Virus record (IMG/VR): IMGVR_UViG_648028025_000010
DNA length: 64,000 bases
Direction: 5' to 3' (one strand)
Source of the DNA: a virus
Taxonomy: Duplodnaviria; Heunggongvirae; Uroviricota; Caudoviricetes
The first letter of the stretch is position 1; the number at the start of each line of letters is the position of its first letter. Position numbers: made by a program. Of the stretch, positions 49,501 through 55,500 are shown in pieces.

Positions 49501-52500
49501 TAAGGAATGATCTGTAGCCGGGTTTCTTCACTCAATTTATTCAATGTCGGGTTATCCAGTGCCATCGCGTAATTGAGCAGACCTTCAATCGCAAACTGAG
49601 GATCCTGAACACCAACTTTTGCCAGGAATAAAGCAAACCCAAGCGGTGCTTTTGACTGCACCATCCCCTGCGCAGCCATCACATCCGTAATTGTTAAACC
49701 ACCAGAGCCTGTCGCCGGTGCGTCATCGCTCAGTTTTGGAGATTTCGGGGAGTAATATTTCGGTAAGGCTTCAAGGTTCATGCTCGTTCTCCACTTACGC
49801 CAGTACGCCAATTGCCAGCGCACGATCGATAAAACGAAATATCAGCTCCAGCTGAGAGCCATACTTCTCTTCAAATGCCACGGTATCCGCATGAAGCTCG
49901 TTGTGATGCTCCCGACACAGCGGTAGCGTGAAAATATCGTGAGATTTTGTCCCCATTCCGCCCTGACCATGACCAATCAGGTGATGGGGATCGTCGGCTG
50001 GCTTACCACAACACGCACACGGCTGTGTCTTTACCCAGCGTGTGTATTTCTCATTTACCCAGCGGCGACGTTTAGGTCGTTTCATGAAGGATTCCGGAGA
50101 CTCCGGATCAACGGCAATGCTGACCACCGTCTTTTCCTGTGGTGGGTTCTGTTGCTGGTGGGTGTGAGACGGTAGCGCAATATTTTTTGTGCGCTGCTTC
50201 AGTATGCTGGTGGCGGTCTGTTCTCCCGGTATGATGTCGCTTTCACGGTATACGGAGCGGATTTTTTCCGCACGCAACCCCAGCGAACGACGTAATACCG
50301 CTTCCGGTAGCGCGTCCGCCACCTGATTGCGGACCGCCCACCAGGATAATTCAGCCAGCGATAATTCCCGTTCCTGTATGCCATTCATTGCGTGGCGGAT
50401 GACGTCAATCATCCATGCTGACAGGTTTTGTTGAGCAAGTTGCTCGAGTGATTCTGATGTCTGGTCGCGCAGCTGGTTGTCACAGTGCCAGCACAACACC
50501 ATCGCGCCGGTACCATAACGGTGAATGACTGTTTCGCTGTGATGATAATCGCCGTGTGGCCACTGGCAGGATTTCACGTGACGTAATAACCAGTCAGACA
50601 GTGCACCTGCACCACCTGCTGCACGAATAACCCGCTCATCGCTGAAAAATGGCAGTAATGTTTTATCCTCTGCCAGCGGCTGGCGAACGGCAGGAACGAC
50701 TCCGGACGGCAGACCGCGCATGTTTTTCGGTTCCGGCTCCACCAATATTCTGCCGTTATGGAATACTGACATTGATTCACGGCCTGGCTTAACGATAACC
50801 AGACCGAGTTCCGGTACCAGAACAGGTCGAAGTAATACCCGCACGTTACCTCCAGATGCGCTGCTGGAATGTGCGGGACGGACGCGGTGGGCGTTCGGAA
50901 TAAGGGAGCCTGGCGGAGATTATCCAGTGACGACGATCGAAGCTGAGATCTTTCTGAAACTCGTAACCACGCCTGCGGTAACACTGGATCAGCCATTCGG
51001 CCTGTTCTTCAGTGCATAGGGGATGCTGGAACCAGTCGGTTTTAAATACGTGCGAACACCGTCCTTGCCTACTGGCAAGGGCGGCAGAATTGTGCAATCT
51101 GCTATCGTGCGCCATCGGGATCTCCGGTGGCACGGTGTTTCTCAGCGACGGTTCAAGTCAGCCTGATTTTATAGCTGCTTCTGAATATCATCAACAGGTA
51201 ATCCTGCCAACTCTCTTACCTCAGAAAGAAGAGAAAGGCTTACAACAACCTCATTACTTCGCATAACAAAACCACATTGAAAAGAACCATCACTGTTTCT
51301 GTAAACAACAACCGGGCGCGTGCTCTCATAAAACCCCGGGATCAAACTGGCTGGGATTTTCACAACACCTCCTGACGTAAAGGAAATGAAATGCATTATC
51401 GCTTCTCTCGGACTATAACCATGAAAAGAGACGCATTTCACTCAGTAAATCTGAGGATTTTATGCGCAAGAACAATGACTTTTTCTGTCTGCCGTTTATA
51501 CAATCTGAATTACGTCTGTTTTTTGAACACCGATAAATCAGCAAGCATTCTCAAATAAAGATTGCCTCCATAGTCCACATGGTGTAACACTATGTGTTAT
51601 ATAAAATGCAGAGGCAGGTATGCGAATTTTCAAAAACGCCTGGTTTGAACGTTTCGCTCGAAAACATCGGATTTCCGATAAATCGCTGCGCAAAATCGTG
51701 GAGCAGGCCGATAAGGGGATCATATCCGCAAATTTGGGTAGTGGTGTCATTAAACAAAGATTAGCCCGAAGTGGTGGCGGAAAATCAGGCGGTTACCGGA
51801 CAATAATTTTTTACCGCGTTGCAGAAAAAGCCTTTTTCATCTACGCATACGCAAAGAATGAACGAGAGAATATCACTGCTATAGAGGAAAATGCTTTTCG
51901 AAAAGCCGCTCCCCATGTCCTCAATCTTACTGATGAACAGCTGGCACAATTGATTCAACAAGGCCAGTTCACGGAGGTACCCAATGAGTAAAAATTACCG
52001 CAGTGATGCACTTGCATCTGTACATGAAATGATGGAGTCACTCCATGATATCGGTGCAATCACAAAACAAACTATGCGCGAATTCGATGAAACTTGTCTT
52101 CAGCCTGCGCCGGTAATGTCTCCGGAAAGGATCCGTGCACTGCGAGAACGAGAGCATCTGTCTCAACCTGTTTTTGCCAGATACCTCAACGTCAGTAAAA
52201 ACCTGATATCAGACTGGGAACGAGGAGTGAAACGCCCGGGAGGTGCAGCTCTTCGGCTTCTTTCAGTTGTCGAGAAAAACGGGATCCAGGTAATATCCTG
52301 ATATTCTAATACAACAAAACCCGCCGAAGCAGGTTAAGTGCGGGTGCGTTGAGGATGCCTGACACATCAGAGGTGGCGAGGGATTTCTCCCTCGCCAGGT
52401 CTCTTACTCCTCAGGTTCGTAAGCTGTGAAGACAGCGACCTCCGTCTGGCCGGTTCGGATTCGTACCTCGCAGAGGTCTTTCCTCGTTACCAGTGCCGTC

Positions 52501-55500
52501 ACTATGACGGTTAAACAGATGACAATCAGGGCGATTAACATCGCCTTTTGCTGCTTCATAGCCTGCTTCTCCTTGCCTTTCGGCACGTAAGAGGCTAACC
52601 TACATGTGCAAAGCATGAAATTGGCCTCAGATTAATGTTAAGCGTCCTGCAAGACGCGTAATGTTAACTGGGGCTTTTCTCTGTCTGCCTTACGGCGGCA
52701 TGCCCGAGGCAGACAGCCTCAAGCACCCGCAGCAATTCTACTTAACTCTTCTTTCCCCGCAAATCATTTTATCCCCGATGGTAATGTTCTCCCGATATGG
52801 GAATTCCCATATCAAGGTTAACTCAATCGGTTAAAGCTCCATTAATTTTCCGGCCAGTTCATCTCGTGGCATTACCAGCCATCCGCGCGATTTAAGCAAA
52901 GCCAGGGCTTCTTCAACCGTCACCAGCTGGCCAGGCGCATAACTTCGGATGAAGGCGGTTTTATCGTCACGGATCGCCAGGTGAAAATCGATATTCATTT
53001 TTCCCATAGCCCGCTCTTTCTCGTACTGGTTGAAGTAACTGTCTTCGAGTTTTTCGAATACTTCCCACGCCTGATCGGTTTCGAGCATTTTTGCATGACG
53101 GGCTGCTCCGCGTTCTGTCCAGAGGATGAGAGTGCGGGTTTTGGGAGAAATTTTCACCTCATTTTGCGACTCGTTTAAAACTAGTCGCAAATTTTTGAGC
53201 TCATCACCAACAGCTTTAAAGAAGTGTTTTCCCTCAATAAATCGAGATTTATTTTCATGGTGATTCTGCTGTATACGGATTGCTTCTGTTCCGTAAAGGC
53301 GGGCGAGTAACTCAGTTGTGATTACAGGAATCTGGTTATAAGTGACAGGGGAAAGGTTTTTGACAGTAACTTGAGTCGTCATGATAACGCCCTCTGGTTG
53401 ATGAATTTAACTATCACCACCTTCAGGTCTCAATCATCAGGTGGCGAGACGTACAGGGTTGAGACTACCGGATCAACCAACCGGCCAGCCTTTCGGCTGC
53501 CCCATACGCCTCACCATAATTCAGATGTGCGTGCGCATACGACAATAAAAAACACGCTCGCGGCGTGTGTCTGTCGCGGTTGAATATCCGGGGTCTCAAT
53601 CCCGACGGTCAACTCGACCGTGCGGTGAATATAGCCCCGGATTAGTAATTACGTCAACCCCAGCGGCAAATCGAATAAACCACCAGCGCTACCGCCATTG
53701 CAACTCCTGCCGTTACGAATGCCTCAGGCCAGGTCATCGTAAACTATCCTCAGCGCCAATCAGTCCGTTTCGCTTCAGGCAGTCCATCGCTTTATACGGT
53801 AATTTGGCTGACAGGCGAAAATCACCCTGCAGCATCAGGCTTATTCCCTTATCCCGGGCTTTCGCTCTGACCGCTGCCTCGCTACGACCAATCAGACTGC
53901 CGATACTTTCGACAGTCATCGTTCCCGCGCACTGCCGGAGTATCAGAATTTCAGCCCGGCACCACGTCTTCCACCCACTCACCGCTGCTGTTCTCTGGTG
54001 GCGGTAATATCCCGGAGAATATCCCGGCACTTGTTCAGCTCCCGCAGCGCGGCGCAGACTCGCTCCCACTTCTGAACCTGACCTTTTGCCCGGCGCAGCT
54101 CGCGGTTAGCCACATGCAGCGATGGTAAAATCAGCCCATCCGGATGCTTTCTGGTGAACGACGGCTGTGACTGCACTGTGACCGCCACACTTTCCGTTTT
54201 TATTTCTTCCTGTGTTTCCGCTTCCCGGACTGGTAACGCAACACATGCTGGCTGAGGAAAGGCTTTACCATCGGTTTCCGCTACGGATGCAGCTTCCGGC
54301 TCTGCCGGTAAATCAGCGCCCGGTATGCAGTAACGAAATTTACCGTTCTGATTTACGCGTGCCAGGCGCCCCGTTGCTGTTACGACCGCCAACGTGGAAG
54401 CAACCTTGCGAATGCTAACACCGAACTTATCCGCCAGTTCCTCACACGTTTTAGCCCCATCCTGACAGATAAACTCAATCATCATGTCCGCGGTAACTTT
54501 TTGTTCGACCTCCCCGGTCAGCACATCCGGTACTTCAGACTGTGCTGGCTGTTCTTCGGTTACCCCGGATTCACCTTCACCAGCCAGAAACCAGGTGTGA
54601 CCCGTTTTATCAACAACGCCATTTTTTTTGAGTTCCCACAGTTCGTTGAGAACTTCTTCACGGCTGATATCAAGCCGCGCCGCCAGTTCAACAGAATTGG
54701 CTTTACCCATCGTTTTCAGTGCATGCAATACGGTTTCCATTAAAACTTCCTCCGGATAAAAATTACTTCTCAGTTCCTGTGCTGGCTGACGTTCGGACGC
54801 CAGCTCTCCCAGTTAAACGTCACCCAGCGACCACCGTTCATGGACATGCGGTCCATCACCCGCTCGCCGAGAAGTGTATTCATCGCTGCATGGTTAAGAT
54901 TTGTCAGCATCCCCACACTGAGTAACGATGCCGTTCTGCGGTCAACAATCTGATTCAGCGTGACCTGCTCATTACGCGTATCCCGTTGCATGCCAATTTC
55001 ATCCAGTACCAGCAGGTCAACGCCACACAATCCCTGCAAAAATTTTTCGCCCGAGTTTTTGTTGTCGTAGCTGCCATGTAACGCCAGCATCACATCCGCC
55101 ACTGTTATCACAATCACACTGCGACCTTTCGCCAGAAGGTGGTTGCCAATAGCCGCCGCCAGGTGGTTTTTTCCTGTGCCAGGCCTGCCACTGAAAACAA
55201 AATTCGTACAGCCGCCTTCCAGCTCTGCCGCAATGGATTTCGCCTGACTCAGGGCATGGCGCTGACCATCGTTCTGCACCCGGTAGTTACCGAACGTACA
55301 CTTCCGGTGAAGCGGCTGGATACCGGAGCGGTTAATGATTTTTTCAACCCGCGTCTGATGATTCAGACGATTAACCTCCTCGCTTCGCTTACGCCCTTCA
55401 GCAAGCTGCCATTCCCGCCACTCCGTCACCGTACGGTACGGAGGGATTGCATCCTGCGGCACAAATCTGCTGACTCTTGCCAGAACACCACCTGACGTAA

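Follow-up and report, generated by a model that had tools for sequence, protein, structure and literature searches.

A relBE-carrying IS1202-family element beside hokD and an unoccupied hok/mok/sok locus in two tandem lambdoid prophages of Escherichia coli O26

The toxin-antitoxin (TA) genes described here have their closest known relatives in the hokW-mokW-sokW locus of the Stx2 phages 933W and Sp5, the hok/mok/sok locus of plasmid R1, the HigB2-HigA2 pair of Vibrio cholerae with the related 'relE-yiaG' modules, the relBEF operon of the K-12 Qin prophage and, for the DNA that carries one of them, the insertion sequences (IS) of the IS1202 family. They lie in a 64,000-nucleotide (nt) stretch of DNA, hereafter the window, which by sequence identity equals positions 2159134-2223133 of NZ_CP028116.1 (E. 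coli O26 strain RM8426) and covers two lambdoid prophages in tandem between ydfJ and rspB. Prophage A, the 'remnant A' of an earlier note on this DNA, is Qin-like and has its integrase gene interrupted by IS elements; prophage B shows the same early-region order and a complete late gene set. Our subjects are a 3301-bp IS1202-family element of prophage A (568-3868), which carries relE, relB, ydfV, flxA and an intact gene for a transposase of 446 amino acids (aa), and the TA region of prophage B (51577-52763), where a type II operon and a convergent hok/mok/sok locus stand between the replication genes and Q.

HokW, a close relative of the Hok protein of prophage B, is 44% identical to R1 Hok, and hokW-sokW is a working type I TA locus requiring RNase III and Hfq; induction of the prophage is followed by loss of Sok, synthesis of HokW, and earlier lysis and phage release (PMC8621323). 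The PF06296 toxins are described in a superfamily survey of 2025 as toxin-first, ribosome-dependent mRNases paired with YiaG-type helix-turn-helix (HTH) antitoxins that resemble HigA2 (PMC11980606), and in K-12 relBE is co-transcribed with relF/hokD (PMC3598666). Members of the IS1202 family have TGT/ACA ends with imperfect repeats of 24-29 bp and transposases of 394-507 aa, and one subgroup (ISTde1) has target duplications of 15-17 bp; some members carry passenger genes, some are target-specific and oriented, and the papers on the family state that no target is known outside the dif-targeting subgroup (PMC10132070; preprint 10.1101/2022.12.17.520857).

When the two ends of the window are compared by blastn, the shared segments form a colinear mosaic with the hok block first among them, so that the TA clusters of A and B sit in equivalent places of two homologous backbones, as the earlier note had proposed. 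The note had also correctly read relB-relE-hokD in A at 399-1152, with hokD at 399-554, relE at 626-913 and relB at 913-1152, all on the minus strand. The gene order of A there is ydfT(Q)-ydfU-hypothetical gene-rem-hokD-relE-relB-ydfV-flxA-transposase-DUF977, followed by the replication genes, cro/cI-like genes, dicF, dicB, exonuclease, xis and int. Alignment of the two hok regions, which the note had suggested, gives a common block of 258 bp (A 311-568, minus strand, corresponding to B 52316-52573) with 253 identical positions and 5 mismatches (98.06% identity). It consists of the 156-bp hok coding sequence, 88 nt past the stop codon, which comprise the 3' untranslated region (UTR) with the 3' fbi element and the terminator, and 14 nt before the ATG, where the homology of hokD to B stops. 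The coding sequences differ by one synonymous change, and the Hok proteins of A and B (WP_000813254.1 at both) are identical to each other and to K-12 HokD. The leader of B (52574-52763) has no counterpart beside hokD of A, and the Rfam model RF01794 finds no match in A even at E<=1. The near-identity of the hok genes claimed by the note is therefore real, but its '~150 bp of leader' is not part of it, the shared DNA being the 3' UTR and only 14 nt upstream. As judged from this comparison, hokD of A is a hok gene but not a hok/sok locus.

Directly upstream of hokD in A begins the IS1202-family element. At this end relE (PF05016, E 2.2e-13) and relB (PF04221, E 1e-32) read outwards into hokD; ydfV (1177-1482, plus strand, from the annotation) and flxA (1685-2017, plus strand; FlxA Pfam, E 1.9e-14) are cargo that varies between copies; and at the far end the transposase gene (2454-3794, minus strand) encodes an ISEsa1-like protein with an N-terminal HTH_28 (E 3e-12) and an rve_3 domain (E 1.5e-6), named 'IS1202-like element ISEsa1 family' by PGAP and 100% identical to that of an Enterobacter plasmid copy. 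The RefSeq annotation splits this uninterrupted open reading frame (ORF) into 'ydfW' and a 'partial' transposase, apparently via the K-12 gene name. The terminal inverted repeats, read on the plus strand at 568-597 on the relE side (TGTCAACGCAAAGCAGAAGTGTCACCTTCG) and at 3839-3868 on the transposase side (ending in ...GTTAACA; complement TGTTAACACCAAGCTGTAATGTCCCCTTTG), agree at 22 of 30 positions, against 20 of 30 for the best unrelated hit anywhere in the window. The element ends are TGT...ACA, the relE-side repeat is identical at 30/30 positions in the plasmid copies, and a second copy of GGGGACATT lies just inside the transposase-side repeat.

The element is bounded by an exact 15-bp target-site duplication (553-567 and 3869-3883), whose unoccupied counterpart, ATAGCCTGCTTCTCC, occurs in B as a single copy at 52558-52572, comprising the 'AT' of the hok ATG and 13 nt upstream and abutting the Sok -35 hexamer; the insertion point in A lies 13 nt upstream of the hokD ATG. 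Beyond the right-hand duplication, A keeps a 14-nt remnant of the displaced hok leader from the Sok -35 region (TTGCCTTCCGGCAC, 3884-3897, minus strand), fused to the 3' part of the DUF977 gene: A 3869-3897 equals B 52558-52586 in a 29-nt blastn match whose first 15 nt are ATAGCCTGCTTCTCC, and other DUF977 genes match A only from about 3883-3892 onward. We rejected chance as the source of this 29-nt match, given the abutting inverted repeats and the plasmid copies; a separate 1.5-kb IS beside relBE was likewise discarded, as there is no second inverted repeat between flxA and the transposase gene and the 3301-bp unit moves whole. These ends and sites indicate that the 3301-bp transposon cut hokD from its leader, with duplication of 15 bp and formation of a relB-relE-hokD ('relBEF') operon, and that the displaced leader was later cut down to 14 nt and joined to the DUF977 gene.

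By its ends, repeats, transposase size, internal repeat copy and 15-bp duplication, the element fits the IS1202 family. With ISAba32/ISAjo2, ISTde1 and ISEsa1 it shares the TGT...ACA ends, imperfect repeats of ~25-30 bp, a 446-aa transposase with HTH and DDE domains, a long duplication, and the internal repeat copy near the transposase-side end (by reading, near the other end too). It differs from them in its target. Described IS1202 targets are XerC/D sites (dif/pdif), in the 5-bp subgroup only, whereas the relBE element lies at hok-family translation start regions; for the long-duplication subgroups and ISEsa1 no target has been found, and for ISEsa1 no duplication either. Having relBE as constant cargo also sets it apart from these relatives. 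Insertion at a fixed distance from a recognised sequence is a principle known from Tn7. Carriage of a type II TA as an integral transposon passenger is described for Tn3-family transposons (PMC7157771). From both, the relBE element differs in its transposase family, in having a single transposition protein without TnsD-like target selectors, and in that its target is itself another TA locus.

The arrangement recurs well beyond this genome. Elements that are 94-100% identical are found on IncF and IncI plasmids of Enterobacter, Salmonella, Citrobacter and E. coli, in prophages of several genera, in genomes of Klebsiella, Kluyvera, Pseudocitrobacter, Huaxiibacter, Superficieibacter, Pantoea and Shigella, and in 61 viral contigs. 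In every copy whose relE end is covered, the next gene is of the hok family, oriented alike and only 33-70% identical to HokD, and the duplicated 15 nt, always spanning -13 to +2 of the hok start, vary with the local target: ATAGCCTGCTTCTCC at the hok of prophages A and B, ATGGCCTTCTTCTCC in IncF and ATCATAGCCCCTCCA in IncI, there at the pnd position beside trbA. Both ends together with an exact 15-bp duplication are present in 37 loci. The right-hand flanks fall into 23 distinct types, and the insertions affect no fewer than 8 different hok-family loci. A full-length hok leader (RF01794 positions 1-157) starts exactly at the transposase-side repeat in 8 loci, and the Shigella copy and most prophage copies have a complete leader after this end. 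When the element and one repeat are removed from the Salmonella IncI copy, the resulting 400 nt are 100% identical to many IncI plasmids. Within the element, relE-relB is the constant cargo at one end and the transposase gene stands at the other, while the middle varies (ydfV/flxA are replaced by other genes in copies L012, L015 and L016) and the total length ranges from 2.3 to 6.1 kb; relBE is 93-100% identical in all copies that cover this end, and 97-100% save for the decayed copy L013. From these recurrent sites, the element seems to be directed to hok-family loci and to insert there mostly in one orientation, and its transposase would be the enzyme that moves it. In one copy (L011 3054-3128), two element ends face each other across a single 15-bp spacer, an arrangement that amounts to tandem or repeated insertion into a regenerated target.

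Several observations weigh against an element that chooses hok loci. Three copies have flanks unlike hok (L013, L024 and L060), one is reversed at the same hok junction (L025 1190-1370), and one has mismatched flanks, hokD-type on the left and pnd-type on the right (L090), which suggests recombination between copies. Moreover, the target in B is intact but unoccupied in a genome with an intact transposase, which argues for low activity or some immunity, and since hok ribosome-binding regions are conserved, comparison does not separate sequence recognition from shared ancestry of the targets. It could be argued that the relBE-hok junctions arose once and were spread by homologous recombination, or by a site-specific recombinase with a fixed core, without any hok-choosing transposon; L090 indeed shows that copies recombine, and the hok ribosome-binding regions are similar enough for some recombination. 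We nevertheless regard this as extremely improbable, because the duplicated 15 bp vary from site to site, agreeing on both sides with the local hok sequence, the flanking hok genes are 33-70% identical as against 94-100% for the elements, the reconstructed empty site is identical throughout its 400 nt, and the enzyme is a DDE transposase acting with TGT...ACA ends, not a tyrosine or serine recombinase.

Insertion by a hok-directed transposon also accounts for the K-12 operon. E. coli K-12 MG1655 has the identical left junction, with the inverted repeat at 1645288; it is colinear with window positions 1-2638 at 99.8% identity, then jumps to window position 5476, and retains only 'ydfW' as a transposase remnant. 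From the identical junction and the colinearity up to 2638 we take K-12 relB-relE-hokD (relBEF) to be a decayed copy of the same insertion; on this evidence it is a truncated copy in which most of the transposase gene has been deleted. Prophage A shares the junction of the Qin relBEF but has kept intact its transposase gene along with the other inverted repeat and the other duplication copy, and the operon is thereby revealed as an insertion product. The insertion would separate hok from its promoter, its mok and the Sok target; the hok ribosome-binding site would be kept, and hok would be transcribed only by read-through from the autorepressed relBE promoter, while the Sok promoter would stay intact on the displaced leader, leaving an orphan Sok-producing leader. 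That E. coli relBE, the founding RelE-type TA, is the fixed cargo of an IS1202-family transposon homing 13 nt upstream of hok-family starts, and that this transposon is at the same time undescribed, is a joint claim to which we give an even chance. No published description of a relBE-carrying, hok-directed element was found in a search that left most subscription journals and ISfinder/TnCentral outside.

Prophage B holds the corresponding hok gene, which encodes a small hydrophobic peptide of the Hok/Gef type (52404-52559, minus strand; 51 aa; PF01848, E 2.7e-23), in its full regulatory context. In frame with it is mok (52404-52616, minus strand; 70 aa), taken from the ORF list and aligned with the annotated mokW of 933W. 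The hok mRNA leader (52554-52728, minus strand) matches RF01794 over model positions 1-157 of 157 with 117.3 bits, against a gathering score of 59, in agreement with the hok locus with a long leader that the earlier note had seen; as the match is on the hok-sense strand, the model represents the leader and not Sok itself. The presumed +1 of the hok mRNA is at 52728, and the 5' fbi/tac element extends from 52728 to 52717 on the minus strand. The promoter scan missed the promoters of both hok and Sok, which were read from the sequence and placed by homology to 933W. The putative hok promoter (52735-52763, minus strand) has a -35 hexamer TTTGCG (52763-52758), a 17-nt spacer and a -10 hexamer TAGAAT (52740-52735), the -10 being identical to that of 933W and the -35 different at one position. 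The Sok promoter (52573-52601, plus strand; -35 TTGCCT at 52573-52578, 17-nt spacer, -10 TAACCT at 52596-52601) is identical to the 933W stretch, where mutation has shown the sokW promoter to be functional (PMC8621323). The Sok-like antisense RNA itself (~52610-52680, plus strand, with coordinates transferred from the annotated sokW of 933W) covers with its 5' end the mok start codon (52616-52614) and is predicted to form a long hairpin flanked by a free 5' stretch and a U-rich tail (-30.2 kcal/mol, z -5.1).

At the other end of the transcript, the intrinsic terminator found by the terminator scan (52312-52335, minus strand; stem-loop 52335-52318, then a T run) is the 3'-terminal hairpin in the mRNA fold and is conserved in A at 311-330. 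The 3' fbi element CCUCAACGCACCC (52341-52353, minus strand) is complementary to the mRNA 5' end and identical in 933W hokW and in A; in the minimum-energy fold of the 415-nt transcript (-181.1 kcal/mol, z -8.7) the first 12 nt, GGGUGCUUGAGG, pair with it, and this 5'-3' pairing is predicted in the minimum-energy and centroid folds alike. Rfam matches below threshold in the hok 3' UTR, to isrK (24-25 bits) and rsmX (17-20 bits), were dismissed as terminator-hairpin noise. The locus shows neither insertion nor frameshift and is present in most of 5426 complete E. coli genomes. The mok and sok features on which the earlier note had made its hok call depend, namely the mok ORF, the RF01794 leader and the Sok promoter and hairpin, are thus all present; its interval of 51620-52559 places the genes correctly but ends at the hok start codon and so misses Sok, the beginning of mok and the two promoters.

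From the promoter to the 3' fbi element, this locus is 91% identical at the nucleotide level to hokW-mokW-sokW, with which it shares the in-frame mok, identical Sok promoter hexamers, a conserved Sok stem and residence in a lambdoid prophage. However, hokW-mokW-sokW lies near the right end of the 933W genome and the B locus in the early region, the B Hok protein is that of K-12 HokD and not HokW, and the terminator regions differ. With R1 hok/mok/sok the B locus shares the fbi end pairing (predicted in B), mok-coupled translation, the RF01794 leader and an antisense Sok promoter (-35, 17-nt spacer, -10) that abuts the hok ribosome-binding site. The R1 locus is carried on a plasmid and has its mok in another frame than hok, whereas the B locus is carried on a prophage and has mok in frame with hok, like chromosomal and phage loci.

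By analogy with R1 and hokW-sokW, the full-length hok mRNA of B would be locked by the pairing of its ends, 3' trimming would open it, and Hok would be made through mok translation only. The short-lived Sok, transcribed from the promoter abutting the hok ribosome-binding site, would pair at the mok start and lead to cleavage by RNase III; once Sok transcription stops, through loss of the element or prophage induction, Hok would be made and would damage the inner membrane. The HokD coding sequence is toxic (preprint 10.1101/2025.08.07.668861). On the model of hokW-sokW, the most likely role of the locus is to bring about earlier lysis and phage release after induction, with prophage stabilisation a possible second role. 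In both hok genes the codon for Tyr47 is TAC followed by G (52419-52421 in B and 414-416 in A, minus strand). UACG is the sequence context in which TadA is reported to edit A to I in hokB, turning Tyr into Cys; a 2026 preprint extends this to hokC, hokD and hokE.

The type II operon of B is, as the earlier note had it, a toxin-first RelE/ParE-like gene followed by an HTH antitoxin, with HigB-2 and HigA-2 as the best solved relatives. The toxin (51620-51991, plus strand; 123 aa; WP_001217944.1, a RelE/ParE family toxin by its PGAP name) matches Pfam PF06296 ('PF_RelE', HigB2-like) over profile positions 1-120 of 120 with E 1.4e-47, keeps 27 of the 27 invariant columns of a 44-sequence family alignment, and has 1418 homologues, with PF06296 in 120/120 among the matches listed. 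Against V. cholerae HigB-2 in the PDB it scores E 4e-4 alone and 1.5e-4 with the 44-sequence profile; the identity is 21-24%, and the sequence match is limited to the core, where the motif G-x-G-K-x-G-G-x-R aligns to HigB2. An AlphaFold model of only moderate confidence, computed from the family alignment (pLDDT 67.7), has HigB2 chains as its three best PDB fold matches, with probabilities of 0.90-0.99. This assignment has its weak sides: residues 36-59 of the model are below 50, the HigB2 fold matches are weak (TM 0.44-0.51, E at best 7e-3), and no NCBIfam or PADLOC model matches the toxin. The toxin-fold support to which the earlier note had tied its call is therefore present but not strong, and the family assignment comes mainly from the full-length Pfam match.

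The antitoxin (51984-52301, plus strand; ~105 aa), a YiaG/HigA2-like HTH protein (HTH_3, E 1e-7; HTH_31, E 2.4e-7), has a gene that overlaps the toxin gene by 8 nt. Its residues 45-99, the C-terminal XRE HTH, align to residues 39-93 of HigA-2 in the PDB (E 6.7e-8), and its NCBIfam matches (MqsA family, PRK10072 and NadS) are all below threshold. The pair shares the toxin-first order and the overlapping genes with HigB2-HigA2 and the 'relE-yiaG' modules (Gerdes 2025), though its toxin is without the N-terminal extension of the subfamily highlighted there; by these features it fits the PF06296 and YiaG description of the 2025 survey. Reading of the sequence upstream gave candidate operator palindromes at 51577-51597, 23-43 nt upstream of the toxin start, with overlapping GTGT/ACAC arms (ACATGGTGT-A-ACACTATGT and ACAC-TAT-GTGT); a repeat tool working with exact 6-nt seeds reported no inverted repeat upstream of the toxin, because the arms are too short for its seeds. 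A possible promoter from the promoter scan (51475-51504, plus strand) could serve the operon. If the pair works like HigB2-HigA2, the toxin would cleave translated mRNA on the ribosome, as its family does, the N-terminal part of the antitoxin would wrap and block the toxin, and the C-terminal HTH dimer would repress the operon, perhaps at the palindromes. In the hok terminator hairpin (52318-52335) the T run is on the hok strand only, so that type II operon transcripts may read through as antisense to hok, a possible coupling of the two TA loci.

The module is present in 214 of the 5426 complete E. coli genomes, always on the chromosome and, in every context inspected, in the early region of a lambdoid prophage. 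It behaves as a small portable unit (~51583-52310) in varied neighbourhoods of this region: hok may be adjacent, as here, separated from it by a Doc-family TA, as in O104:H4, or absent. A search for its empty site, with the two flanks joined as query, found none: wherever the module occurs its left flank comes with it, so that no insertion boundaries could be set. Three TA loci follow one another in this prophage region of the O104:H4 outbreak strain (L006 3500-5320): the HigB2-like pair, a toxin of the Doc family preceded by a small gene, and hok. The toxin gene is shortened to 85 codons in O104:H4 2011C-3493 (L006 3590-3847) and split by a 1-bp indel in O91 RM7190 (L008 2561-2933), with an undamaged antitoxin gene in either strain, as is usual when TA loci decay; several other strains likewise show two toxin ORFs in place of one, as in O91 RM7190.

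How these loci serve the prophage, and how the clusters of A and B came to differ, can be read in other ways. The earlier note saw the TA region of B as mirroring that of A, with type II modules that are non-homologous replacements of each other, and one could accordingly assume a single accessory slot beside hok in which recombination exchanged relBE for the HigB-like pair, or the reverse, and left hok with its leader in place. The colinear position of both clusters in two homologous backbones and the portability of the HigB2-like module speak for such a slot, and the modules are indeed of different kinds: the toxin of B and RelE of A belong to different families of one superfamily, with marginal similarity in the core strands only, and the antitoxins are unrelated. 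But relBE lies upstream of hokD and shares its strand, whereas in B the type II module is found downstream of hok and on the other strand, so that the modules are not alternative fillings of one slot and the mirroring holds only loosely; the leader is not common to A and B; and inverted repeats with a 15-bp duplication enclose relBE together with a transposase gene, a unit that is seen again in unrelated hok loci. We consider a swap highly unlikely. Insertion of a relBE-carrying transposon into the A locus, with B left as it was, explains the same facts.

A second doubt concerns the use of the B loci. The hok and Sok promoter hexamers are weak, the Sok promoter departing from consensus and escaping the promoter scan, and tested chromosomal hok loci gave no post-segregational killing, as cited in preprint 10.1101/2025.08.07.668861; the hok/mok/sok of B might then be a silent relic like the K-12 hok loci, of no use to prophage or host. 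This we think unlikely, since the locus has the full set of known elements in the right register (promoter, 5' and 3' fbi, mok, hok ribosome-binding site, Sok promoter, Sok hairpin and terminator) with nothing inserted or frameshifted, and since its 91% identical relative hokW-sokW is a functional TA that makes lysis and phage release faster after induction (PMC8621323). For the HigB2-like pair, the frameshifted or truncated toxin genes of some other strains suggest that selection on the toxin may be weak. Its restriction to the lambdoid early region, where accessory genes cluster, its place beside a Doc-family TA and hok in O104:H4, and the discussion of RelE/ParE-superfamily toxins as defence toxins (PMC11980606) would suit a module that mainly defends the lysogen by abortive infection or excludes competing prophages, instead of a stabilising or selfish one; as no PADLOC defence model matches the toxin and the toxin has decayed in several lineages, we hold this to be possible but not the expected role. 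Overall, we are confident that prophage B carries two independent, intact TA loci, a type II operon and a hok/mok/sok locus, and that prophage A carries the transposon insertion. The cluster of B is in itself ordinary, both loci being annotated in RefSeq and their families already described.

Other features of the prophages are noted for completeness. The 90-aa neighbour of the B type II operon (51169-51441) has no match in NCBIfam or PADLOC, and comparison led us to reject it as a homologue of Rem, which holds the corresponding place in A. Directly upstream of the hok promoter lies an ORF6N-domain gene (52831-53382, minus strand) and just upstream of that a tandem of C4 antisense RNA (69 bits) and isrK (51 bits; 53437-53621, minus strand), a layout that resembles the antisense-controlled antirepressor modules of P1/P7 and the Salmonella Gifsy phages. 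Downstream of the Q antiterminator of B are a tRNA cluster (Ile, Arg, Arg; 48278-48524, minus strand) and a match to the small RNA STnc100 (46736-46905, minus strand), an arrangement typical of Stx-type phages, here followed by a SASA-family esterase instead of stx. At the tail-fibre end of B, the type III effector gene nleC (17208-18194, minus strand) adjoins a DinI-like gene and other phage gene fragments at the A/B boundary. Each prophage has its own DicF small RNA and dicB (7637-7688 and 59207-59258, both plus strand), so that this cell-division inhibitor cassette is present at least twice in the strain.

Set beside A, the hok locus of B serves as an intact reference copy that shows the hokD locus before its disruption, and the comparison explains why a hok gene without its regulatory RNA stands at the end of the K-12 relBE operon; for the IS1202 family, it adds another kind of specific target to the dif sites. 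If our reading is true, one addiction module rides a transposon that homes into another addiction module. Being situated on mobile DNA, hok loci may act as a safe harbour in which a place on mobile elements is guaranteed, and, common as they are on plasmids and prophages, they would offer a harmless landing site, as dif does for other IS1202 members. If confirmed, the element would be a tractable system for target finding by a single-protein transposase, an example of conflict or cooperation between addiction modules, and a warning against taking relBE, hokD, flxA and ydfV for ordinary Qin prophage genes.

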